IMG/VR virus record: IMGVR_UViG_2534682139_000016
Span: 1 to 47,073 of that record
From: a virus
Lineage: Duplodnaviria > Heunggongvirae > Uroviricota > Caudoviricetes
Direction: 5' to 3' (one strand)
DNA: 47,073 nt
Positions 1,880-44,888 of the stretch are shown in pieces; within the stretch, counting starts at the first letter, position 1, and every line of letters starts with the position of its first letter. The translations under genes and the position numbers were made by a program. The notes under the pieces were generated by a model that saw only the letters and a program-made list of their open reading frames with translations, searched no databases and had not been told where the DNA came from.

Positions 1880-3313
1880 TCAAGGCTGCCCAGTCTTACC
1901 AGCATCAGCAGAAACAGCTTTGAGGATATAGGGTTCCAGAAGTCTGGCAACAGCTTCAAATACTGGCACCACAACTGAGTTACCGAACTGCCGATATGAC
2001 TGAGTATCTGAAACCGGAATACGGAATGGTTTCCCTCCAGGTTTTTCAAATCCCATAAGGCGTGCGCACTCTCGGGGAGTCAGCCTGCGTGGTCGACGAG
2101 CCTGATTACTCTCATTCATAAAGTCAGCCTCTCCCGTTGCCATATCCCAACCACGATCAATAAGAATTTCTGATCCGTCTTTGTGATATCTGGCAGAAAG
2201 TGTGCGTGCAATGCTTTCCTTATTCTCAGGATTGACCAACCCAAAGCCAAAACCATTCCCCTTGGCTGCATGCTTTTTGGCGTAGTTATAAAGGTACTCC
2301 CATAGTTTTGGCGTAAGTATATATTTACTGTCGACTACAGGCTCCAGCAATTCACCAAATGATGGGCGGTGTTCCGGATAAAAACGACTGATATCACGCA
2401 AGGTAAACCCCTTGTGAATATTCAGATCTCGTCTAAATCCGACCAGAACAATGCGTTCACGATGCTGAGGCAAAAAATGCTTCCCATCGATAATCTTTGG
2501 ATCGTTTTTTCCCATTTCTGCAGCATCGGCAACTTCGTAGCCCAGCTCGTCAAGGGTCTCCATAATGACTTTGAAAGTTTTACCCTTATCATGGCTCTTC
2601 AGATTTTTGACATTTTCCAGCACAAAAATTGCCGGTTTTTTTGCTCGTATAATACGTGCCACGTCAAAAAAAAGTGTTCCTTGTGCTTCACATTCAAAAC
2701 CATGCGCACGACCAAGTGAGTTTTTCTTACTAACACCAGCAAGGCTAAATGGCTGGCACGGGAACCCCGCAAGAAGCACATCATGATCCGGCACATGCTC
2801 ATCAATATATGCATAAGCATCCGTTTCCAATACATCGGTTTTATCACTCAGCGTGACTTCCCGAATATCGAGATTGAATTTATGCACCTGTTCATCGTTA
2901 AACCAGTTGGCCTTGTATGTACGCACAGCATCTTTATTCCATTCACTGGTAAAAACACACTGGCCTCCAATGGCCTCAAAACCTTTCCGTATCCCTCCAA
3001 TTCCAGCAAATAAGTCAATGAAGCGGAAAGCATATTCCGGATGGTTTGCAGGTGGTTCTGGTAGCATCTTACGCAGAAGAGACTCTTCTACTGAAGTCAA
3101 CGATTTTGGTAAACACTTGCCATTAATCCAGCGGTTAATGGTTTCACGGCTCCACTCATTTTTTCCGACTTTTCTCAGTAATTCAGCCACATACTTCTGA
3201 TCATAGATTTCCAGCACTTTCTCGATAAGCTTTTTATCATTTTCCTGTCGCAGCTTTTCTTCCGCCTCGGCTTCCTTCAGCAGATGCTGTGCCAACACTT
3301 CAAATTCAGACAT
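1880..3313 (-). CDS. ecoRIIM: DNA (cytosine-5) methyltransferase, M.EcoRII/Dcm-like
   Basis: Motifs [10 protein letters not shown] (AdoMet binding), GFPCQPFS (catalytic PC), ENVKNL; start placed at MSEFEVL (3313) because GGAGG lies 4 nt upstream, giving 477 aa; ORF track extends to 3355. Confidence 0.9.
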
Positions 3314-3674
3314 AATTCCTCCAAGGGGTCTAATGGGTGAAACTTTATCACTCATTCAACCCAGAAGGAAATGTTTTATCTGGATATTTAAACAGTGACT
3401 ACAACGTAATCTAGCACTGGTGATGCTTTGTTAGGCATAGAGAATCATTCTATATACGACTAATGACAGAAAAACAGCAGACAAGTAGTTTGTTCATAAA
3501 TTAACGCATACTATGTGTCTACGGTTTTCGAGACCGGTCCAATCATCAAACGAAACATAAAATTAGCTCACATTATGAGGAAAAGTATCTTTTTTGTACT
3601 ATGTAAATTCAAAGGCTTAGCCTCATTTCTCCGATGGTTTTCTCAACACTACTGGTTGTGAGCCCTTGCAATGA

Positions 3675-4493
<819 letters not shown>

Positions 4494-4550
4494 GTCTTTA
4501 AGTGATAAGCATAAACCGCAGCACGATCTTGCATACGACGTGCTACGGTT

Positions 4551-5105
4551 TCATTTATCTCCGACCGAAAACTTCTTATACAGTGTCGATATACCAACAT
4601 CATAGATGATCGCCACCTTCTGGCGAGGAACGCCTGATGCAATTAATCGCCCAGCCTGCGCCCATTGTTCTGGTGTAAGTTTGGGACGACGTCCACCAAT
4701 TCGTCCCTGTGCGCGAGCAGCTTCCAGTCCAGCTTTTGTTCGTTCAACAATCAGTTCTCGTTCCATTTCAGCCAGGGCACCCATCACATGAAAGAAAAAA
4801 CGCCCCATCGGTGTGCTGGTATCAATAGCATCCGTCAGGCTGCGAAAATTAACGCCACGTTCGCGCAACTCCTCAACCAGAATGACCAGATGCCGCATAC
4901 TACGCCCCAGCCGATCCAGCTTCCAGACAACCAGAGTGTCACCTTCCGATAATGTCCTGAGCAGTTTTTTCAGTCCCGGCCTTTCAGACTTTGTACCGCT
5001 TATCTTGTCTTCAAAAATCAGCTCGCATCCTGCACAGTTCAGCGCATTACGCTGTAGATCTGTGTTCTGGTCATTTGTTGACACACGTACATAGCCAATA
5101 AGCAT
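4551..5105 (-). CDS. pin: Serine recombinase, DNA invertase of the Pin/Gin/Hin/Cin family
   Basis: MLIGYVRVSTNDQNTDLQ... catalytic Ser motif; near-identical from memory to e14 Pin; adjacent to tail-fibre genes flanked by inverted crossover sites. Confidence 0.9.
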   Translation of the reverse strand: MLIGYVRVSTNDQNTDLQRNALNCAGCELIFEDKISGTKSERPGLKKLLRTLSEGDTLVVWKLDRLGRSMRHLVILVEELRERGVNFRSLTDAIDTSTPMGRFFFHVMGALAEMERELIVERTKAGLEAARAQGRIGGRRPKLTPEQWAQAGRLIASGVPRQKVAIIYDVGISTLYKKFSVGDK

Positions 5106-5131
5106 GGTAGATCTCCCTGACAAAAGCAGGA

Positions 5132-5533
5132 ATGATGCCATTTGCTCGTTATTTCTGCATTTTCATAAACGTTGGTTTGGGAGAAGCGGCGAAAAGGGAT
5201 GTAGGCACAGGAGAAAATCAGATACCGGATATGTCAGCCTGGAAAAGAAATCCGAGTTCTAATCGCTGGAGAAAATTGCCTGATGGAACCATCATTCAAA
5301 TGGGAATATCAGCATCAGGGCCATTAGGCTCACCTGTAAATATCACCCTGCCGATATCTTTCAGCAATACCAATTATTGTGTTGTTGCATCGTACGATAA
5401 TGCACGGTCAGGTGTGTCAACAATGGTTAGTTTTGCAGCATTACCTGTTTCACCATCGCAATTTTCCCTGATGTCATCTGTGACTGAGCAAGGAATAAAT
5501 CCTTTTGCTTACTGGATTGCTTTTGGAGATTGA
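5132..5533 (+). CDS. Alternative tail-fibre C-terminal variable segment (silent orientation; expressed only after inversion)
   Basis: ORF reads through the left crossover site encoding ...VGLGE, the same junction peptide (NLGLGE) found in the minus-strand tail-fibre gene; ends next to an oppositely oriented tail-fibre assembly gene. Confidence 0.55.
   Translation: MMPFARYFCIFINVGLGEAAKRDVGTGENQIPDMSAWKRNPSSNRWRKLPDGTIIQMGISASGPLGSPVNITLPISFSNTNYCVVASYDNARSGVSTMVSFAALPVSPSQFSLMSSVTEQGINPFAYWIAFGD
5160..5185. repeat. Invertase crossover site (gix/hix-like), left copy
   Basis: TTTTCATAAACGTTGGTTTGGGAGAA; its reverse complement TTCTCCCAAACCAACGTTT matches 19 of 20 nt of the site at 6965-6990; resembles hix/gix consensus TTxxxxAAACCxxGGTTTxxxxAA. 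Confidence 0.8.
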
Positions 5534-5536
5534 TAA

Positions 5537-5956
5537 ATGGACAGATACTTCTATTCACAAAAAGAAAATGGTTTTTTTACCGATTTAAATAAAGCACCTT
5601 CAGATGCTGTTGAGATAACCACGGATGAATGGCTGTCACTACTGGATGGTCAGGATAATGGCATGAAAATAGTCAGCAATCAGGAGGGATATCCGGTTTT
5701 GACAGAGCAACCACCTTTATCAAAAGAAAACCTTATTGCATTGGCAGAGTTGAAAAAAGGAAAACTTATTAATGAAGCCAACGAGCACATGAACAGCAGG
5801 CAATGGCCTGGTAAAGCGGCTATTGGTCGTCTGAAAGGTGAGGAACTGGCGCAATATAATTTGTGGCTGGATTATCTGGACGCACTGGAGCTGGTCGATA
5901 CTTCCAGTGCGCCAGATATTGAATGGCCTACGCCTCCGGCAGTTCAGGCCAGATGA
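5537..5956 (+). CDS. Tail fibre assembly protein (alternative copy inside the invertible segment)
   Basis: 139 aa; C-terminus ...SSAPDIEWPTPPA parallels ...STAPDIIWPELPEA of the convergent copy; typical Tfa/U-like size. Confidence 0.7.
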   Translation: MDRYFYSQKENGFFTDLNKAPSDAVEITTDEWLSLLDGQDNGMKIVSNQEGYPVLTEQPPLSKENLIALAELKKGKLINEANEHMNSRQWPGKAAIGRLKGEELAQYNLWLDYLDALELVDTSSAPDIEWPTPPAVQAR

Positions 5957-6521
5957 TATCCGGCGCGGTGCTGGTATCTGTTACCGTCACCGCGTCAATG
6001 TAATCCAGCACGGCGTTAAGTCGGGTTGTTTCTGCCTGCGTCAGTTTCCGTCCGGCCTGCAATTTCAGTTGAATCAGACTAATGGAAGCCATTACAGTAT
6101 CAATCAGTGACTGACGTTGTGCTTCTGCCGCGTCTACTGCGGCGCTATGCTGTGCCTCGGTATCCGTCACCCATTTCTCACCATCCCATTTATCGTATGG
6201 CGTTAACGGTGAAAGCGTGACATAACCGTCTTTGATGGCACCGATATAATCCACTGTAACAGCTGCGCCATTTTCTGTTGAGTAAACAGTCTCATTGCGA
6301 TGGTCTTCTTCATGGCTCCATCCCTTACCCGTAAATACTGCCACTTTTCCCGGAATGTTTTCGCCAGGGTCAATACCAGTGGAACAGGCGGGCATACTTA
6401 CGCCAGTATTAATATATTCATCAGACCAGCCCGTATACTCAGATGTTTCAGCATCATAATAAAAACAACGCATATCGCCCGGCACTGTAGCCAGCCCATT
6501 TTCATCAAAAACAGGTTTCAT
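5928..6521 (-). CDS. Tail fibre assembly protein (currently expressed orientation)
   Basis: 197 aa immediately downstream of the tail-fibre gene; convergent and overlapping 29 nt with the alternative copy. Confidence 0.75.
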   Translation of the reverse strand: MKPVFDENGLATVPGDMRCFYYDAETSEYTGWSDEYINTGVSMPACSTGIDPGENIPGKVAVFTGKGWSHEEDHRNETVYSTENGAAVTVDYIGAIKDGYVTLSPLTPYDKWDGEKWVTDTEAQHSAAVDAAEAQRQSLIDTVMASISLIQLKLQAGRKLTQAETTRLNAVLDYIDAVTVTDTSTAPDIIWPELPEA

Positions 6522-7267
6522 TATTTAGCCCTCACCAGAAAGTTAAATGCAATATTTCGCGGTCTGACAGCAACAAAATTCACACCATCACCCACAGAGT
6601 TACTGGTGAAATTAAATCGTGAAAATCCTGGCTGATTTCCGGCGATGCCATCATGAAAGTTAATTGCGTGTCCCGCACCTTCGCCTATATTCCCGGCAAA
6701 CTGAGAAAAGTTTGTAGCTGCCTGCCAGCTTAATAATTCACGACCACCATCTGCACCTCGCCCGTCATCCCAGATACGAATGAAATCACCGCGGGCTTCA
6801 GGTAATACCAGCGAAGGAAACACTTTCGCCAGCACAGGATAATCAGTGGCAGAGAATTTCGCGCCGTTGAACTTCAAAAACACCATACTGGACCAGCTGT
6901 CGATTACAGTATTTGGCATTGCAGCGGACGGCCAGAAGAACGGAACGCCAATAGCTGGAGAACCTTCTCCCAAACCAAGGTTTTCGAGAGCCGTTTTCAC
7001 CGTGCCATCCGATTTGATATCACCAAACGGATTCTTGCGGCTTAACAGCAGCGCACGAAGCGCGGTAAGCAGCTGGTCGTGCCGCCCCTTCTCCAGGCTG
7101 GCACCGGACGCCTCCACAACGCTGCAAAGCTCCTCCTGCAACATGTCAAAGTAGTCATCATCCAGATCGGTGGCAGGCGTGCCGGTCTGGGGGTTACCAC
7201 GGGTAAAACCGTTCTTACCCGCGCCGAACTTATCCTTCTGCGCGGTTTTCGTGTCTATACGATGCAT
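6521..7267 (-). CDS. Tail fibre protein (constant N-terminal part 6978-7267 fused to variable part 6521-6977)
   Basis: [21 protein letters not shown]... N-terminus typical of Mu S-like fibres; the right crossover site lies inside the gene at the constant/variable junction. Confidence 0.75.
6965..6990. repeat. Invertase crossover site (gix/hix-like), right copy
   Basis: TTCTCCCAAACCAAGGTTTTCGAGAG, inverted relative to 5160-5185. Confidence 0.8.
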
Positions 7268-7270
7268 GGA

Positions 7271-7855
7271 TTACTCCGGATATTTAAAAATTACGTAGGT
7301 ATGCGACGGGCAGAGTTTGTTAAGCACACACTCGACAACGGTGTCGCCCCAGATACGCAGTGCGGAATCACAGGGATCGCCACATGTCATCCAGGTGGTG
7401 TTGGTGGCGGCTGGCATGTTGACCTGCCAGTAATACCGCCATTCAGGCGCGTTCACAGCGTCAGTACAGGCCGATGAGCAGGTGAACGTGCTTTTGTCGT
7501 ATCGCGTGATGGTGGCATCTGGTCTGCCCAAGGCAGCAAGCTGTGCAAGATAAAAATCCTCGTTGATGCCACCCGACAGGTTAACCTTCGCATCCAGCCG
7601 TTGCTGACGCTGGCGAAGGGTCTGTGTCCCTGCGGGAATACATTCATCCGGCAGACCGCACAGACGCTCCCAGCGGTTTATCAGTTCAGTGGTAGTGCGC
7701 GGATCCAGCTCCCGCATCAGGGCATCCGCACGCTGATGAACGCGGGTTAATGACGGTGCCGCACCGGCAATCGCCGGATCGCTGGCTGACCACGCCGGAC
7801 CGGGGGGCAACAGTGCCGACAACAGACGGATGTAATCATCGTTTGTCACGTCCAT
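7271..7855 (-). CDS. Baseplate/tail protein, Mu gp48-like
   Basis: 194 aa, position between baseplate J-like gene and tail fibre; [22 protein letters not shown]... Confidence 0.55.
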
Positions 7856-8904
7856 GAAATCGTCCCCAGTACCGCCAGTTCATTTTTTGCAATGGAGATA
7901 TTGTCTGCCGGTGCAAGCAACTGATGGCTGTATTCCCCGTTCGCACCGGAAATCGCTTCACTGATACGTGACACCTTCAGTTCTCCCTGCGGATAACCAT
8001 CACGCAGCAGGAACGAACGCAACTCGGCGGTGATGGCAGCCCGTATTTCCGGTGTGTCCGGCGTCACGCGGATATGAAAATCCACTTTATGCGCCACCGG
8101 CCTGAATACATACAAATCAGAGCCTGCCACCGGGGCCAGTGGCCCGATATGTTGTCTTGCCGCCGTTTCCGTTGATTCTTCCGGAATGGGATTAATCAGG
8201 TCACTGCTGGCAATCATCACACCGACAGTTCCCGTTCCCATCCAGTGACGGTATGTCCATGCGCGGGTAATGCCGGGCACTTCTTTAGCCCAGACGACAT
8301 AGTCCCCGTCAGCCCCGCCCTGCGGCGTCCAGTAATACCGCTCAATGACGCGGGCGCGCCACGTTTCCAGATCTTCAGTATCGAATCCTCCAGTCAGGGT
8401 ATCTGCAACACCGGAAGACGGCAGACCATTCACCGGCGTGACCAGGATTAATGCCGTACCGTCGTCAGCGTTACCGACCGCGCCTGTAGTTGAGCAAGTG
8501 ATCGGCACACGCAGGACACCACCGGAGCTGGTTGCATCGGCAGTTGCCGTGTACTGAACCAGGTCATCGCGCTGAATAACACTCCCGGCAGTCACCTTCA
8601 GGCCATCGCTGACACCTTCCCAGCGCATATACCCGCTGGCAGCCGTGGCCCCCTTGCGCGGACACCGTTTCATCGCAGCATGTCGCGCCAGCCAGGACTC
8701 ATCGCACAGGTCAGGCAGCATATTCATTGCCAGATAATCGATGTACCCGTAAACCGTATGCAGCGCCGCCGCATACACCTTTGCCCGCACGTCTTCATCC
8801 ATGCGCCGGAGCGTGTCGCTGACGTCCAGCCTGGCAAATAAATCGTTACGGAGCATACTGATATTTTCTGCCAGCGTCGGGCGCTGAAATTCACTGTCCG
8901 CCAT
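7846..8904 (-). CDS. Baseplate J-like protein (Mu gp47-like)
   Basis: 352 aa; order and size in a Mu/P2-type baseplate block. Confidence 0.7.
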
Positions 8905-27019: not shown

Positions 27020-28195
27020 ATGGATATAACTTGTTTAGAATGTGGCAATGTTCTTGACGACCCAACTGTAGCTTGCGATAAATGCGGTGCCACGCCTCAT
27101 GTTGTAGTGCTGGGCAAACAATCGTACTTTCCTATTGGTGCTGTAACAGCAAATCTTGAAAAAAATGATTCAAGAGCATTTGATTATCGATTAGGTGAAG
27201 TTTGGGATCTAAAAAATGAAGTCACATCTGAATTCATAACCAGAATTGAGAAAAAATTTAGCCGAAAAAACAAATTTCATAACTTCCTAGACTCAGATCA
27301 CAACCCTTCATCCATTCCTACGATCCTAAAAAAATACATTAATAAAAATAATGAATTCATTGATTTATCTAGAGCTATAATAGAGAAGCTTAAACATAAT
27401 GCTAATAACGAATCGAGAGTTGCCCAACTTCAGGGGGGGAGCGTTGTTTTCATCCACTATAAGTCTACCGAACCAGAGGATTTGGGGAAACTTCTAATCG
27501 TAATGGTTGATAAACAAAGCGCCTATGACTTTGATTCGGATAAGTTGACCCCAACAAGATTAAATCCAATTAATACCGATGCCTTACGGCAGGCTGCGAT
27601 GTTCGATTTAACTTTATTCGAAGCCAGTTATCCAGAAAACAAGGGTGACTCATATGTACATTTCTTGCAAGGTAAATCTAAAAGCGATTTTTTCAAAGAC
27701 TCATTAGGTTGCCGACATGATTCGGACAATAAAAGAAGCATTCAGCAATTATTCAGTGCTATAGATATTTTTGCTAGTAAAAACTCACTCGGTCGTGTAC
27801 TGCGTGATACTATTGACAATGAAGTTAAATCCTTACTGGAAAAAAAATCAAAAGATAAACACGGAAATAAGTCCGTTAAGATAGAGGATATTTCAAAAAT
27901 AATTGACTCATGCCTGACTGATTCACACAAATGTAAGGGAACGTTTGTCGATTTTGTTAATCTTAATGGTTTCCAGATTGACCCTCAATTTGAACCAACT
28001 CCTAAAGCAGCTGAAAGCGCGCTTACAATTGAAGTGGCAGATAACGACAATAATTTTAAGTTGAAAATAATGCGTGGAGCTATTGGAGACGAAAAGTCAA
28101 ATAAGCCTGTAATTCTCACTGACAACAAATGCGAAATTGTGATAAAATTGAGTCAGGCAAATTATGATGAACTCAAAAGATATAGAGACAGCTAA
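27020..28195 (+). CDS. Zinc-ribbon protein with NA37/YejK-like nucleic-acid-binding region (cargo gene 1)
   Basis: 391 aa; N-terminal CLECG...CDKCG zinc ribbon; central GGSVVFIHY...LLIVMVD...YVHFLQGKS...DFFKDSLG resembles the nucleoid-associated NA37 family from memory; AT-rich; TATAAT at 27002-27007. Confidence 0.7.
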   Translation: MDITCLECGNVLDDPTVACDKCGATPHVVVLGKQSYFPIGAVTANLEKNDSRAFDYRLGEVWDLKNEVTSEFITRIEKKFSRKNKFHNFLDSDHNPSSIPTILKKYINKNNEFIDLSRAIIEKLKHNANNESRVAQLQGGSVVFIHYKSTEPEDLGKLLIVMVDKQSAYDFDSDKLTPTRLNPINTDALRQAAMFDLTLFEASYPENKGDSYVHFLQGKSKSDFFKDSLGCRHDSDNKRSIQQLFSAIDIFASKNSLGRVLRDTIDNEVKSLLEKKSKDKHGNKSVKIEDISKIIDSCLTDSHKCKGTFVDFVNLNGFQIDPQFEPTPKAAESALTIEVADNDNNFKLKIMRGAIGDEKSNKPVILTDNKCEIVIKLSQANYDELKRYRDS

Positions 28196-28197
28196 TA

Positions 28198-29412
28198 ATG
28201 ACAATTGCTGATGACTTATCAAGATTAGCGCAGATTATTAACGGAGCCTCAAGCAGAGTTGAGGGCTACTACACTGTCATAAGTCTTGAAGAAAGCATTG
28301 TTATTGTAAATAGTTCTGAAATAATTAGACTGTTACAATCTATAGGTTATAAAAAGGCAACAACCTGCATCGAAAATAATGAAATTTGGCTAGATCGCCA
28401 AGCTTCATCTTGGGATGACGCTATAATTTATGAGAATGTTGAGTCTTTTTGGTCTAGAGTAAACACCCAAAACGCTCTTCCGAAAAATTATATCATCGGA
28501 ACGCCGTTAATACTCCCTACTTCTAAGAATGAAAGCATCGAAAAAATCCATATTTTCTTTATGTGGAAAGATATCCTTTCATTAATTGCTGATCATCATA
28601 ACAGTGACTGCTCTGTCTTATTTTTCACCAATGAAGACAAAAGTTATACAGTCGAACTCACGCATTTTTTACAATATAGCGAGATTAATCGCTTATCGAA
28701 CTCGTCTCTTAAATATGAAATTATAAAGGAGCTTCTCGACACAATAAAAATCAATGATTTACACAAAAGCGAGCGCAAGCTCGTTATACGCTCAGCCATA
28801 AACGAAGTATTTAAAGCAAATGGTACGTTCAATTTCTTTGACTTGCTTAACTCTACTGAACTCGTCAGGAAAAAATATGATGAACTATATGAGATTTACA
28901 CAAAGAGGTTTTCTGTAAATAAAATTCTTAACGAACTCGATGAGAAAAATCTTGAGTTCACGAGTAAAATTAACGAATTCATATCATCTAATCAGACAAA
29001 AGCATTGACTATTCCCGGTGCATTAATAGCTGCTGGTGGCTTAGTGAAGGCTAATGAAACAACCGAAGCAATATTGATTATCGCAGGACTTTGGATGATA
29101 AAAAAAGTCAATTACATTTCTATTGAGATATTCAATGAAACATTCGACAACTTACGTTCTCGAGTGGAGTCCGCTTTCGATAAGTATTTAAAGTTTGAAG
29201 AAAATAAAGAAATCAAAGATAATGCAGATAGTATTAAGAGTAGCATTACAGGTTTGATTGATAAAGCTAAAAAAAGGATGAGAACTGTTAAATATCTCGC
29301 ATCAGCCATGTTTTATGGAGGCCTTATTTACGTTGGATATAAACAGTTCCCAGTCTTTTTTGAAAAATCGGCAGTAAATCTATTTTATTTTTTATGCCAT
29401 ACTATAAGCTAA
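28198..29412 (+). CDS. Hypothetical protein with C-terminal hydrophobic helices (cargo gene 2)
   Basis: 404 aa; start 2 nt after gene 1 stop; hydrophobic stretches ALTIPGALIAAGGLV and YLASAMFYGGLIYVGY. Confidence 0.7.
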   Translation: MTIADDLSRLAQIINGASSRVEGYYTVISLEESIVIVNSSEIIRLLQSIGYKKATTCIENNEIWLDRQASSWDDAIIYENVESFWSRVNTQNALPKNYIIGTPLILPTSKNESIEKIHIFFMWKDILSLIADHHNSDCSVLFFTNEDKSYTVELTHFLQYSEINRLSNSSLKYEIIKELLDTIKINDLHKSERKLVIRSAINEVFKANGTFNFFDLLNSTELVRKKYDELYEIYTKRFSVNKILNELDEKNLEFTSKINEFISSNQTKALTIPGALIAAGGLVKANETTEAILIIAGLWMIKKVNYISIEIFNETFDNLRSRVESAFDKYLKFEENKEIKDNADSIKSSITGLIDKAKKRMRTVKYLASAMFYGGLIYVGYKQFPVFFEKSAVNLFYFLCHTIS

Positions 29413-39843: not shown

Positions 39844-40062
39844 GTGGAGAAACATATGCTGAACCTCGATTGTGTTCCTATCTCAACTTATTGCAAAGAA
39901 ACTGGCGAAACTCCTGAAGCAATAAACAAACGTGTACAGCGCGGTGTTTGGCGTGAAGGTGTTCAGGTTTTAAAGGTTGAAGGCGTTAAGGAGAGGTGGA
40001 TTGATCTTAGTGAGGTTGCAAAATGGGCCAGACAAAACTGCTCAAACTACCGCGCGGCGTAA
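39844..40062 (+). CDS. Excisionase-like protein
   Basis: 72 aa immediately upstream of and overlapping int. Confidence 0.55.
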   Translation: MEKHMLNLDCVPISTYCKETGETPEAINKRVQRGVWREGVQVLKVEGVKERWIDLSEVAKWARQNCSNYRAA

Positions 40063-41198
40063 CAATCAGGAAACACCGCCAGGGCGAAACGATCAATATA
40101 ACTTTCACCTACAAAGGAGTTAGATGTCGTGAGCCGCTTTCCAATCTGGAAGTAACACCAAAGAACATTAAATACGCCGAGCGTACACTCGGCGAAATCC
40201 ATAATAAGATCGAAAGGGGAACATTCATTTATGCAGAATATTTTCCCCGTTCTGCTCGTTTGAAAATTTTTGGTAATGCTGCTGCAGGCAAAACGGTAAA
40301 GATGTACCTGGACGAATATCTTGAAATCTGCGAAACAAGAAAACTTTCACCCTCTACGATTGGTGGCTATAAAAAATGCCGTAGTGCGTTAGCCTCACTT
40401 CACATTTGCCCTGCAAGTGAATTAACACCAGCAACCCTGAAAGCGTGGATTCAAAGCCAGAAAACAACCTTAAAAACCATTCGCAACCAGTTATCTTTCC
40501 TGCGGTCAGCACTTGATGAAGCCGTGACCGATGGGGTACTTCAAATTAACCCCGTATCGTTAGTAACAGCTTCGCGCTACCAAAGTGATAAGTCAGAAGC
40601 AGAAAGCAGCTATGTGGTTGATCCGCTATCACCAGCAGAAGTTGATGCATTACTAGCAGCAGCCGGAAACAAACAATGGGAAAATCTGTTCCGGTTCGCT
40701 ATACATACAGGCCTGCGTAGTTCTGAACTATGTGCCCTTCGATGGCGTGATATCGACTTTGTTGGAAAAACAGCACATGTCCAGAGCGCAAGTGTTGTTG
40801 GTGTTATCAAAGGGACCAAAACAAAAGCCGGTACTCGTAAAGTTGAACTGACAGAAGAGGCAATGTTGGCGCTGATAAATCAGAAGCCATTTACGTTCAT
40901 GAAAGATGCTACGGTCTTTGAAGATCCAAAGACCAATAAGCCTTGGGCAAGTGCTGATGCAATCAGGAAAAAAGCATGGGTGCCAACATTGCGAAAAGCA
41001 GGTATTCGCTACAGAAACCCATATCAGACCAGGCACACTTATGCTACTAAGTACATTAGCCAAGGAGCTAATCTCTTCTGGCTAGCAGGGCAGATGGGGC
41101 ATAAGGGGCCCGAAATGTTGTTTCGTCATTATGGGCGTTACTTGAGTGATTATGACAACCACAGCTCAACAACGCTCACAAGTAATTGCAAAAAGTAG
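40023..41198 (+). CDS. Tyrosine-type phage integrase
   Basis: 391 aa; C-terminal catalytic region with ...RHTYAT...; HxxR/Y-region GQMGHKGPEMLFRHYGRY. Confidence 0.85.
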   Translation: MGQTKLLKLPRGVTIRKHRQGETINITFTYKGVRCREPLSNLEVTPKNIKYAERTLGEIHNKIERGTFIYAEYFPRSARLKIFGNAAAGKTVKMYLDEYLEICETRKLSPSTIGGYKKCRSALASLHICPASELTPATLKAWIQSQKTTLKTIRNQLSFLRSALDEAVTDGVLQINPVSLVTASRYQSDKSEAESSYVVDPLSPAEVDALLAAAGNKQWENLFRFAIHTGLRSSELCALRWRDIDFVGKTAHVQSASVVGVIKGTKTKAGTRKVELTEEAMLALINQKPFTFMKDATVFEDPKTNKPWASADAIRKKAWVPTLRKAGIRYRNPYQTRHTYATKYISQGANLFWLAGQMGHKGPEMLFRHYGRYLSDYDNHSSTTLTSNCKK

Positions 41199-41448: not shown

Positions 41449-42300
41449 ATGACTACACCAGTAATAAGTTTCATAAATATGAAAGGTGGGGTTGGTAAAA
41501 CAACTTTATGCGTCGGCATTGCTGAATATCTTGCAAACTTCATGGATAAAAAGGTATTAATTATCGATATTGACCCACAATTTAACGCTACACAGTCAAT
41601 ACTTAGTAAATATGATCGAGTGAAAGAGTATATAGCTGATCACTTAGAAAATACAAAAACCATCAGACGAATATTCGAGACAAAATCAAGCTTAACGGGT
41701 AAAGTTCAGCAGGTCACTCCTGATGAAATTATCATCAAGATGTCAGAGCACTTAGATATGATTTTTGGTGATATTAATACAATATTTGATATTGAACAAC
41801 CTGCGGCAAGATTACATAAGCTAAAACGCTTTATAGAAGAACATAAGCTTCGAGATATATATGACTTCATTTTGATCGATAGCCCACCAACCATTTCATT
41901 ATTTACTGATGCAGCTCTCGTTGCTTCAGATTATTATATTGTGCCAGTTAAAATTGACCACTACTCAATTTTAGGTGCGACAAGTCTTTTAAGCGTAATA
42001 GAAAACATTCAAGATAATTATGACCATAAAAACATTCAAAACCTTGGTTTTATTTATACTAATACCCTAGAAAATCTATCAAAAAAGACAAAAAAGCTAA
42101 AGACAGACTTTGAAAGTACTGAACCTTTTAATGAACTATACTTTTTTGATAACCAGTTGAAGTTTGTACAGGATTTGATGGTGGGTGGTAGAGGTAATAT
42201 ATCATCAAGTTATAAATCATCCAGAAAATATATCAAAGCGATTTGTGAAGAGTTTTTAAGTCGGATCCAAGAAGTGCAAACGGGGGGGGAAGATGAATAA
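41449..42300 (+). CDS. ParA/MinD-superfamily ATPase (cargo gene A)
   Basis: Deviant Walker A MKGGVGKTT at residues 11-19; Walker B-like LIDSPP; AT-rich; GAGGG RBS. Confidence 0.8.
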   Translation: MTTPVISFINMKGGVGKTTLCVGIAEYLANFMDKKVLIIDIDPQFNATQSILSKYDRVKEYIADHLENTKTIRRIFETKSSLTGKVQQVTPDEIIIKMSEHLDMIFGDINTIFDIEQPAARLHKLKRFIEEHKLRDIYDFILIDSPPTISLFTDAALVASDYYIVPVKIDHYSILGATSLLSVIENIQDNYDHKNIQNLGFIYTNTLENLSKKTKKLKTDFESTEPFNELYFFDNQLKFVQDLMVGGRGNISSSYKSSRKYIKAICEEFLSRIQEVQTGGEDE

Positions 42301-43461: not shown

Positions 43462-43492
43462 GGACGCTGGTTCAACTCCCGCCAGCTCCACC
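43462..43492 (+). repeat. Direct repeat of ssrA 3' end (att site)
   Basis: GGACGCTGGTTCAACTCCCGCCAGCTCCACCA matches 372-402 with one mismatch. Confidence 0.85.
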
Positions 43493-43658
43493 ACTTTTTA
43501 GTTGTTTGAAGTTCAATGAAGTCTACTAAGCCCACACAGCACAAGCTCTGCGGGCTTTTTTACGTCTATTGTCGTCCAGTGAGAATTGCTGAGAACTACG
43601 AGTTATGGCACCCTGAATGGGACCCACTAAGAAGGGTCCAAAAACCGAGGGTCCCAAA

Positions 43659-44888
43659 ATGGCAAAAATCGCTAAGAAGCTCACTGACACTGAAATCAAA
43701 AGCACCAAGCCAGCCGATAAAGAAATCAACTTGTTTGACAGTGATGGTCTGATTCTACGAATCGCTCCTTTGGCGAAAGGAGGCAAGAAAAATTGGTATT
43801 TCAGGTATGCAGTACCAGTGAGCAAGAAAAGAACCAAAATGAGCCTTGGGACATATCCTCACCTTACCCTTGCAAGAGCCAGAGCCTTACGTGATGAATA
43901 TCTCTCCTTTCTGGCAAATGGTGTTGATCCCCAAATCCATAACAACGATAAGGCGAAGGCATTAAAGAGTGCTACTGAGCACACTCTCCAAGCCGTAGCG
44001 CGGAAATGGTTAGATGAGAAGGTAAAGACATCAGGTATCTCACAAGACCATGCAGCAGACATCTGGCGCAGCTTAGAGAGAAATGTCTTTCCCGGTCTGG
44101 GTAATGTCCCTATCAATGAGATCCGACCTAAGCTCTTAAAACAACACCTTGATCCTATTGAGCAACGAGGCGTATTGGAAACTCTACGCCGTATCATTTC
44201 ACGTCTGAATGAAATCTTCCGGTGGGCAGCTACTGAAGAACTTATTGAGTTCAACCCGGCTGACAACCTTGGTCAAAGATTCAGTAAACCAAAAAAGCAA
44301 AATATGCCTGCCCTTCCCCCAAGCGAATTGCCAAGGTTTATGGAATCTTTGACGAATGCGTCAATCCGGTTGGAAACACGTATGCTAATTGAATGGCAAT
44401 TGTTGACATGGGTTCGTCCGGGTGAAGCCGTTCGCGCAAGGTGGTCTGATATTGATACAACCAACAGCATTTGGAACATTCCTGCTGATTTCATGAAAAT
44501 GAAAAAGCTTCACAAAGTTCCTTTGAGTAAAGAAGCTTTGCGCATCCTTGAATTAATGAAATCAATAAGTGGGCATAGAGAATGGGTTTTCCCCAGCATA
44601 AAAGCGCCTCTTAATCATATGCATGAACAAACAGCCAACGCAGCTATCATCCGAATGGGGTTCGGAGGCGAGCTTGTAGCTCACGGTATGCGTTCTATTG
44701 CACGAACAGCGGCAGAGGAGTCTGGTAAATTCAGAGCTGAAGTTCTTGAGGCAGCGCTTGCCCACTCGAAAAAAGATGAAATTATCGCAGCATACAATCG
44801 TGCAGAATATCTGATAGAGCGACAGAGTTTGATGCAATGGTGGAGTGATTACGTTCAAGCTCAAAGATCAAATGCTCTGGTAGCCTAA
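43659..44888 (+). CDS. P4-type (IntA-like) tyrosine integrase
   Basis: MAKIAKKLTDTEIKSTKP... and ...DIWRSLER...MQWWSDY... parallel CP4-57 IntA from memory; begins ~166 bp after the ssrA fragment. Confidence 0.85.
   Translation: MAKIAKKLTDTEIKSTKPADKEINLFDSDGLILRIAPLAKGGKKNWYFRYAVPVSKKRTKMSLGTYPHLTLARARALRDEYLSFLANGVDPQIHNNDKAKALKSATEHTLQAVARKWLDEKVKTSGISQDHAADIWRSLERNVFPGLGNVPINEIRPKLLKQHLDPIEQRGVLETLRRIISRLNEIFRWAATEELIEFNPADNLGQRFSKPKKQNMPALPPSELPRFMESLTNASIRLETRMLIEWQLLTWVRPGEAVRARWSDIDTTNSIWNIPADFMKMKKLHKVPLSKEALRILELMKSISGHREWVFPSIKAPLNHMHEQTANAAIIRMGFGGELVAHGMRSIARTAAEESGKFRAEVLEAALAHSKKDEIIAAYNRAEYLIERQSLMQWWSDYVQAQRSNALVA

Follow-up and report, generated by a model that had tools for sequence, protein, structure and literature searches.

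A very probable Pin/Gin-type inversion switch of the tail-fibre gene in an apparently complete SfV/e14-like prophage

In a stretch of DNA of 47,073 nucleotides (hereafter the window, meaning the whole stretch analysed), the tail-fibre gene of a prophage is very probably subject to a site-specific inversion switch of the Pin/Gin type, which corresponds to the P segment of e14 but lies in an apparently intact prophage. The segment between the two crossover sites of this switch inverts in nature. The system is already known from e14 (Pin and the P segment) and from Mu (Gin and the G segment), and only the cassette alleles differ from those of K-12. The e14, Mu and P1 switches were described in the 1980s, and thousands of E. 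coli genomes contain the system. As a textbook system whose invertase gene is already annotated as pinE by PGAP, the switch has little discovery value in itself. Its features, in window coordinates, are as follows.

4551-5105, minus strand: pin, encoding a small serine DNA invertase of 184 aa (Resolvase and HTH_7; PHROG DNA invertase)
5021-5083, minus strand: predicted recombinational enhancer at the 5' end of pin, with two Fis-motif matches
5160-5185: left (pin-proximal) crossover site, core TT at 5172-5173 (AA on the minus strand)
5173-6977: invertible segment, 1805 bp from core to core
5187-5533, plus strand: unfused alternative fibre C-terminal cassette (Gp53-like_C, E 1.6e-13), in an ORF open from the ATG at 5135
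5537-5956, plus strand: assembly gene of the unfused cassette, 139 aa (Caudo_TAP, E 2e-26; 55% identical to e14 TfaP)
5928-6521, minus strand: assembly gene of the expressed cassette, 197 aa (Caudo_TAP, E 3e-27; 63% identical to e14 TfaE)
6521-6963, minus strand: expressed variable C-terminal part of the fibre, within the 248-aa ORF at 6521-7267
6965-6990: right crossover site, inside the fibre gene, core AA at 6977-6978
6991-7267, minus strand: constant N-terminal part of the fibre, outside the segment (98% identical to e14 StfP)

The prophage in the window appears to be a complete SfV/e14-like element of ~43 kb at ssrA of STEC O103:H2, and FWSEC0007 matches it at 100%. It encodes an integrase along with lambdoid-type regulatory and lysis genes. 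In the tail operon the fibre gene comes after baseplate J and ymfQ (Mu gp48-like), with the Mu-type baseplate genes gp47/gp48 upstream of it, and PD-T4-3 and a type II R-M system adjoin the switch beyond pin. The positional alignment of NZ_CP024479 to the window fails past ~25.4 kb, and in this part of the prophage that strain carries an IS3 insertion.

The pin product combines Pfam Resolvase (E 6e-52) and HTH_7 domains and is 94% identical to K-12 PinE. Its residues 1-179 align to the Mu Gin structures 3uj3 and 4m6f (E 3e-93), and the catalytic Ser9, in GYVRVSTNDQ, aligns with Gin 4m6f. The gene starts at the ATG at 5105, not at the in-frame upstream ATG at 5141 given by the ORF finder. In Hin, Gln151, Arg154 and Leu155 together with basic residues 47, 48 and 51 contact Fis and the enhancer, and these positions are conserved in DNA invertases only (PMC3798978). 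Alignment to Gin places the corresponding contact residues of Fis-dependent invertases in Pin, where the motif QAGRL is the same as in Gin and RPGLKKLLR stands against RPGLKRALK. Judged by its sequence, Pin is a member of the Fis/enhancer-dependent serine invertases close to Gin, in line with the Pin-type invertase proposed in an earlier note on this DNA.

That note had also described two inverted 26-bp sites sharing 19 of 20 nucleotides. The repeat is present, with arms of 20 nt each (5167-5186 and 6964-6983) that are 95% complementary (19/20) across a 1777-nt spacer, and a 19/20 inverted repeat occurred in 0 of 300 dinucleotide-preserving shuffles of positions 4000-8000. With one of them reverse-complemented, the two crossover sites are identical at 21 of 26 positions; they lie in inverted orientation, each with an AA core when read in the same sense, and share TTCTCCCAAACCAA, which comprises the inner half-site and the 2-bp core. 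The left site, as its reverse complement TTCTCCCAAACCAACGTTTATGAAAA, is identical at 26/26 positions to the e14 site beside pinE and lies 66 bp from the invertase start, the same spacing as for Mu gixR. The right site, TTCTCCCAAACCAAGGTTTTCGAGAG, is likewise 26/26 identical, as its reverse complement, to the e14 site within stfP, and its minus-strand translation reads L-E-N-L-G-L-G-E. These two are the only good crossover sites in the region. A search for extra sites with AAACCNNGGTTT at up to one mismatch returned 4 matches against 1.9 expected, including an exact palindrome at 42039-42050 that has poor outer half-sites and lies within a ParA-like ORF; we regard it as a chance match or a pseudo-site.

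Conservation of the inverted sites in related elements, which had been put forward as a way to test the switch, extends from e14 to IMG/VR viral contigs. There, inverted site pairs 1.45-3.6 kb apart were found at 66 loci, and at 61 of these a site and a Pin-like gene are no more than 120 bp apart. The left-site variant TTCTCCCAAACCAACGTTTATGAAAA is the most frequent site form in IMG/VR (53 copies).

As the earlier note had it, the sites bracket two alternative fibre C-terminal cassettes and two convergent assembly genes, identified here by Gp53-like_C and Caudo_TAP matches. The first 103 aa of the fibre are 98% identical to e14 StfP. The expressed tip is 41% identical to e14 StfE and matches tail fibre and tail collar PHROGs; in the DNA of the expressed cassette, identity to the side tail fibre and tfa genes of phages mEp213 and mEp043 is 92.7%. 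After in-silico inversion, the off-cassette joins the constant part in frame to give a 216-aa fibre that matches tail-fibre PHROGs and is followed by the 139-aa assembly gene. The fibre reads GSPAIG after LGLGE in the present state and AAKRDV after inversion; the two proteins thus diverge exactly after the shared LGLGE, which places the right site at the divergence point within the expressed fibre gene, again as had been claimed. DNA homology to SfV, SfI and SfIV stops at 6964, and the switch marks a mosaic joint for the exchange of fibre tips between phage lineages.

Both orientations, for which a search had been suggested, occur in natural genomes. The window sequence inverted in silico matches E. 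coli UTAK-14 at 3001 of 3001 positions, and over 13.4 kb UTAK-14 differs from the window only by two SNPs and an exact flip of 5187-6963. UTAK-14 therefore carries the same prophage in the flipped state, and the flip must be very recent; the 216-aa fused fibre is annotated there as a CDS. The sister isolates 0H24 and 0H26, which carry a related prophage, are identical over 11 kb except for the same flip. In CX15, both orientations are found in one assembly of a single sequenced culture. Across these independent lineages, which carry different cassettes, the breakpoints fall exactly at the sites.

One could suppose that the sites and pin are inherited relics and that inversion has been lost in the window prophage. 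Among records matching the whole 3-kb query at 99.3% or more, 10 have the window orientation and 2 the inverted form, an imbalance that speaks for such a fossil. The flipped copy of the same prophage in UTAK-14 argues against loss, as do a full-length Pin with every catalytic motif present and sites identical to the e14 sites that are experimentally active (PMC12529663), and we consider this explanation very improbable. We give even less credence to the idea that the differences between genomes come from RecA-dependent recombination at short repeats, or from assembly error, rather than from Pin. Homologous inversion at an inverted repeat is possible in principle, and the extra contig of CX15 is of low quality and frameshifted, but the identical stretch spans only ~14-20 bp, which is below the length of an efficient RecA substrate. 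Such events would also hardly account for breakpoints precisely at the sites in independent lineages, or for the invertase that adjoins the site pair at 61 viral loci. In addition, pinE and pinE pinQ mutants are locked in one orientation (PMC12529663).

These comparisons favour Pin-mediated inversion, which, by analogy with the characterized members of the family, may proceed as follows. Pin dimers bound at both 26-bp sites would assemble with host Fis, on the enhancer in the 5' end of pin, into an invertasome on supercoiled DNA. Both sites would then be cut at the AA/TT 2-bp core, one pair of subunits would rotate by 180 degrees, and religation would leave ~1.8 kb flipped; this cleavage and religation chemistry is proposed from homology to Gin and Hin. 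The first ~100 codons of the fibre gene and the upstream expression signals would stay fixed outside the segment, so that in each orientation the constant part would be joined to a different receptor-binding C-terminal cassette, with the assembly chaperone belonging to that cassette coming next. The present state would yield a 248-aa fibre with a 197-aa Tfa, and the inverted state a 216-aa fibre with a 139-aa Tfa. Because each orientation pairs another fibre tip with its own chaperone, a population of lysogens would release virions with two fibre specificities. Virion production and a change of host range by the switch are inferred.

Inversion may depend on Fis and an enhancer. Two matches to a degenerate Fis motif (5069-5083 and 5021-5035) lie 48 bp apart. 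In alignments of the window with e14 pinE and Mu gin the pair falls at matching positions, which may mirror conserved codons, and the stretch from the left site to the 5' end of pin aligns without gaps to Mu gixR-gin. The centre of the proximal match is ~97 bp from the crossover core, and the hix-to-enhancer distance of Hin is ~100 bp (PMC3798978). We therefore predict, from sequence features, an enhancer at 5021-5083 inside the 5' end of pin. A promoter and terminator scan of 4400-7500 gave 4 promoter sites against a shuffle expectation of 4.3, with no promoter upstream of pin and no usable one for the leader ORF described below.

The switch may serve the lysogen, instead of or besides the virion, through a free fibre tip that masks outer-membrane receptors and blocks the adsorption of other phages. 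In e14, inversion makes StfE2 (the StfE leader joined to the StfP tip), which blocks T2 adsorption (PMC12529663). The window has a homologous leader ORF that is open into the cassette and annotated as a CDS by PGAP: from the ATG at 5135, the off-cassette ORF starts with a 17-aa leader, MPFARYFCIFINVGLGE. An open, ATG-started leader is also found at most Pin-like loci and in Mu, and the adjoining PD-T4-3 and type II R-M genes are defence genes. On the other side, the promoter scan offers nothing for the leader ORF, and the off-cassette shares only 33% identity with the tip of StfP and has no match in PADLOC (nor do two ORFs at 27020-29412). We also considered the leader ORF as a sign of selection for translation and set this aside. 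The conserved ATGATGCC, being the complement of GGCATCAT, reads on the pin strand as TGnCATCAT, an extended -10-like element located 35-43 nt before pin, which offers another explanation for its conservation; 12 stop-free codons, moreover, would arise by chance more than half of the time. Since the prophage looks intact, a role in the virion is the simpler reading, and a function in lysogen defence seems to us unlikely. Slightly more doubtful still is the specific proposal that the conserved ATG at 5135 starts translation of the cassette beside pin, yielding a free tip of 132 aa that masks a host receptor. If it were true, one switch would toggle both virion host range and the resistance of the lysogen to other phages (a role claimed for StfE2 of e14), and it would group with the adjoining defence genes (PD-T4-3 and the type II R-M system).

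The comparison with the Mu G segment and the e14 P region that the earlier note had recommended revealed the same architecture in both. e14 of E. coli K-12 has the same gene order as the window, together with the identical sites, the 94% identical Pin and the 98% identical fibre N-terminus described above; its YmfQ is also 98% identical. The P segment, reported as 1797 bp (PMC12529663), is close in size to the segment in the window, and it is inverted by PinE in cultures (PMC4272514; PMC12529663). Compared with the MG1655 reference, the segment in the window lies the other way round and has the StfE-type tip fused. The cassette alleles of e14 are not those of the window: of the window proteins, the on-tip has 41% identity to StfE and the off-tip 33% to the tip of StfP, and identity to the e14 Tfa proteins is 63% and 55%. 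Whereas the window prophage is apparently complete, ~43 kb long and located at ssrA, e14 is a cryptic remnant of 15 kb at icd, and beyond pin it has mcrA where the window has PD-T4-3 and the type II R-M system. Because the window copy lies in an apparently complete prophage, it should be better suited than cryptic e14 to testing whether the switch alters the host range of virions, the phage resistance of lysogens or both. The switch also accounts for STEC assemblies that differ in orientation or contain spurious extra contigs.

The Mu G segment (Sc-Sv-U / U'-Sv'-gin) follows the same logic, with a constant fibre N-terminus outside and two cassettes of tip and chaperone inside. The invertase lies just outside the segment and is transcribed away from it in both Mu and the window, at the same 66-bp site spacing, but no more than 17-18 of the 26 positions agree between the gix sites and those of the window. 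The G segment is also longer (~3 kb), with an S protein of ~500 aa as against window fibres of 248 and 216 aa, and Mu is a transposable phage, whereas the window prophage encodes an integrase and has regulatory and lysis genes of the lambdoid type. Hin, which inverts the H segment of Salmonella, belongs to the same Fis/enhancer-dependent invertase family as Pin; hixL matches the window sites at 20/26 positions. Hin flips a promoter and is encoded inside its segment, whereas the window switches a coding-sequence fusion and has pin outside. Phage P1 (the C segment and Cin) and p15B (Min) use invertases of the same family to switch tail-fibre tips. Against the two sites of the window, the Min system of p15B has several, along with many cassettes; multi-site relatives also occur in IMG/VR, where one locus has five sites (L059) and another three (L104).

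We identified one outstanding inverted repeat with a repeat finder (5167-5186 versus 6964-6983), with 20-nt arms that are 95% complementary and 1777 nt between them. Dinucleotide shuffling of 4000-8000 gave no 19/20 inverted repeat in 300 trials, which upholds the pair of inverted 26-bp sites claimed in the earlier note. These sites and the genes around them are as follows.

4551-5105 (-): serine recombinase gene (pin), from the ORF map and domain search
5135-5533 (+): fibre C-terminal ORF with a Gp53-like_C domain
5160-5185: left crossover site, 26 bp, TTTTCATAAACGTTGGTTTGGGAGAA
5537-5956 (+): tail-fibre assembly gene (Caudo_TAP)
5928-6521 (-): tail-fibre assembly gene (Caudo_TAP), convergent with 5537-5956
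6521-7267 (-): tail-fibre gene, 248 aa, following ymfQ (Mu gp48-like) and baseplate J, from the ORF map and domain search
6965-6990: right crossover site, 26 bp, within the fibre gene, TTCTCCCAAACCAAGGTTTTCGAGAG

The two sites agree at 21 of 26 positions when one is reverse-complemented. They share the whole inner half-site and the 2-bp core (TTCTCCCAAACC-AA), and differ, C against G, at the position next to the core (5171 and 6979). The right site codes for L-E-N-L-G-L-G-E, and the fibre proteins of the two orientations part ways directly after GLGE, inside the fibre gene as the earlier note had proposed. The segment content that it described, two fibre C-terminal segments and two convergent Caudo_TAP genes, is likewise what the ORF map and domain searches recover. 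Both states give an in-frame fibre fusion with its own chaperone gene behind it.

We built an in-silico inverted construct by exchange at the cores (5172/5173 and 6977/6978) and searched it against complete E. coli genomes. Ten records match the window orientation along its full length (at least 99.3% identity), and the inverted construct has a one-piece match in UTAK-14 (3001/3001). It also matches O121 strain WL1277 at 100%, broken by an IS. Compared position by position over 13,400 bases, UTAK-14 differs from the window only by two SNPs and an exact inversion. The remaining differences all fall within 5187-6963, which the repeat arms enclose; the exchange point is placed only to 5171-5187, because the inner half-sites are identical. 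UTAK-14 contradicts the idea of a fossil switch, which we regard as highly improbable. A related prophage (94.6% identical, with other cassettes) provides independent cases of the flip, as 0H26 and 0H24 are identical across 11,072 bases save for inversion between the same sites. Both orientations thus occur in nature, their breakpoints fall at the sites, and the predicted inversion is found between near-identical genomes. That RecA-mediated inversion or an assembly artefact produced this pattern is less probable still.

In the CX15 assembly, the chromosome holds one orientation and a separate, error-rich 18-kb 'plasmid' contig holds the other, the pattern that a mixed culture leaves. This contig (NZ_CP081745.1, 'plasmid unnamed5', 18,368 bp, linear) is no plasmid: rich in frameshifts, it duplicates the prophage region of the chromosome with the fibre segment flipped, and is an assembly by-product of a mixed-orientation culture.

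The system is the Pin/P-segment switch of e14 in an apparently intact prophage and a sibling of Mu Gin/G, and as such is already known. The e14 comparison proposed in the earlier note gave two crossover sites identical to those of the window (26/26 each), a PinE with 94% identity to Pin, a YmfQ with 98%, and an StfP with 98% identity to the first 103 fibre residues. The e14 cassettes are other alleles: identity is 41% between the on-tip and StfE, 33% between the off-tip and the tip of StfP, and 63% and 55% for the Tfa proteins. The window has the orientation opposite to that of the MG1655 reference. The e14 segment inverts in cultures, as seen by sequencing, PCR and qPCR (PMC4272514; PMC12529663), and mutation of pinE, alone or together with pinQ, is reported to lock the segment in a single orientation (PMC12529663).

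Pin residues 1-179 align with solved Mu Gin structures (E 3e-93), and the protein carries Ser9, QAGRL and RPGLKK..R motifs. A study of Hin describes the residues at the corresponding positions as contacting Fis and the enhancer and as particular to DNA invertases (PMC3798978). Judged by its sequence, Pin is shown to be a member of the Gin/Hin-type family, and it is already annotated as pinE. Mu gixR-gin and the window align ungapped over a stretch that starts with the crossover site and runs into the invertase gene, and the site lies 66 bp from the invertase start in both. We searched for an enhancer using a Fis motif and a spacing rule. Two matches to this degenerate motif lie 48 bp apart (5069-5083 and 5021-5035), ~97 bp from the core, and gin and pinE have matches at identical positions. 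This pair fits a candidate enhancer of the invertase family.

By analogy with Gin and Hin, Pin dimers on both sites and Fis on the enhancer would form an invertasome on supercoiled DNA, which would cut at the AA/TT core, rotate subunits by 180 degrees and religate. The identical asymmetric core in inverted sites would permit inversion. The C/G difference would remain with the flanks, so the fibre would always have Leu and the pin-side ORF always Val at this position; UTAK-14 has these residues. Such inversion would be expected to yield virions of two kinds, differing in fibre tip and therefore in host range.

The off cassette may also have a role in the lysogen through a leader-plus-tip protein, an unlikely possibility that is compatible with a fibre switch. 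Inversion in e14 is claimed to make such a protein, StfE2, that blocks T2 adsorption (PMC12529663, 2025). The window has a homologous open leader with an ATG at 5135 (5135-5185, +; MPFARYFCIFINVGLGE), and ATG-started leaders are common among relatives, including L005, L006, many IMG/VR loci and Mu (MPCVPKSTIIQNLGLQE). The leader runs open into whichever cassette adjoins the invertase. However, an open stretch of 12 codons is unremarkable, a promoter scan found no promoter for the leader ORF, and the conserved bases have a second reading: upstream of pin or gin, the strand opposite ATGATGCC carries a -10-like TGnCATCAT element.

A scan of IMG/VR for the sites behind the Pin/Gin-type switch identified at least 120 loci. 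Among the matches listed, inverted pairs separated by 1.45-3.6 kb occur at 66, and at 61 a Pin-like gene lies no more than 120 bp from a site. Two listed relatives have five (L059, 9091-12732) and three (L104, 5176-7285) sites, suggesting multi-cassette, shufflon-like versions. Two others have two (L048, 1932-2978) and three (L075, 1865-4158) sites, all in direct orientation, and may be deletion-prone or rearranged states. Shigella phages SfV, SfI and SfIV share DNA homology (97%) that stops at 6964, and the lambdoid phages mEp213/mEp043 share homology (92.7%), in their side tail fibre and tfa, that stops at 6992. These ends are the edges of the right site, which therefore coincides with a mosaic joint of fibre-tip exchange between phages. 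SfV (L044) has a single copy of the site (952-977). The inversion observation is confirmed, and its interpretation as a Pin/Gin-type invertible switch, a known kind, is supported.

Over the stretches compared, 4400-7400 and 25000-47073, E. coli O103:H2 FWSEC0007 and its close relatives match the window at 100%. The prophage adjoins the tmRNA gene ssrA (40-402), and the 3' end of ssrA recurs as a 32-nt copy (31/32) at 43462-43493, 43 kb downstream, the likely attR. The gene set is full (head, tail, lysis, regulatory, integrase), and the element is an apparently intact SfV/e14-like prophage. The integrase (40023-41198) is followed by three ORFs, including a ParA-like gene, before the ssrA repeat. 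Beyond this repeat, a second integrase-domain gene (43617-44888) suggests a tandem island.

A defence-gene cluster adjoins pin. It includes a LEM-3-like GIY-YIG protein (3720-4493, +; full-length PADLOC PD-T4-3 match, E 5e-140) that lies between pin and the restriction-modification genes, in the place taken by mcrA in e14. At the prophage end, between ssrA and the switch, are a type II restriction endonuclease (637-1845, +) and a C5-cytosine methyltransferase with a DNA_meth_N domain (1880-3355, -). Two large ORFs (27020-29412, +; 391 and 404 aa) between the Q antiterminator and lysis genes have no PADLOC 2.0 match and are named nucleoid-associated anti-phage protein and anti-phage protein in one RefSeq record.

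The window copy is free of two IS3-family insertions carried by other strains: one in WL1277 inside the match to 4400-7400 (NZ_CP193494.1, 1299975-1304288), and one in 2011C-4315 that interrupts a DUF968 gene (NZ_CP024479.1, 4532178-4533391). Within the ParA-like ORF (41449-42300), an exact 14-bp palindrome (42038-42051, AAAACCTTGGTTTT) includes AAACCTTGGTTT, the invertase core motif, here with TT as its core, and its outer half-sites match poorly. It is probably a chance match or pseudo-site; its use by Pin would produce a ~35-kb rearrangement.
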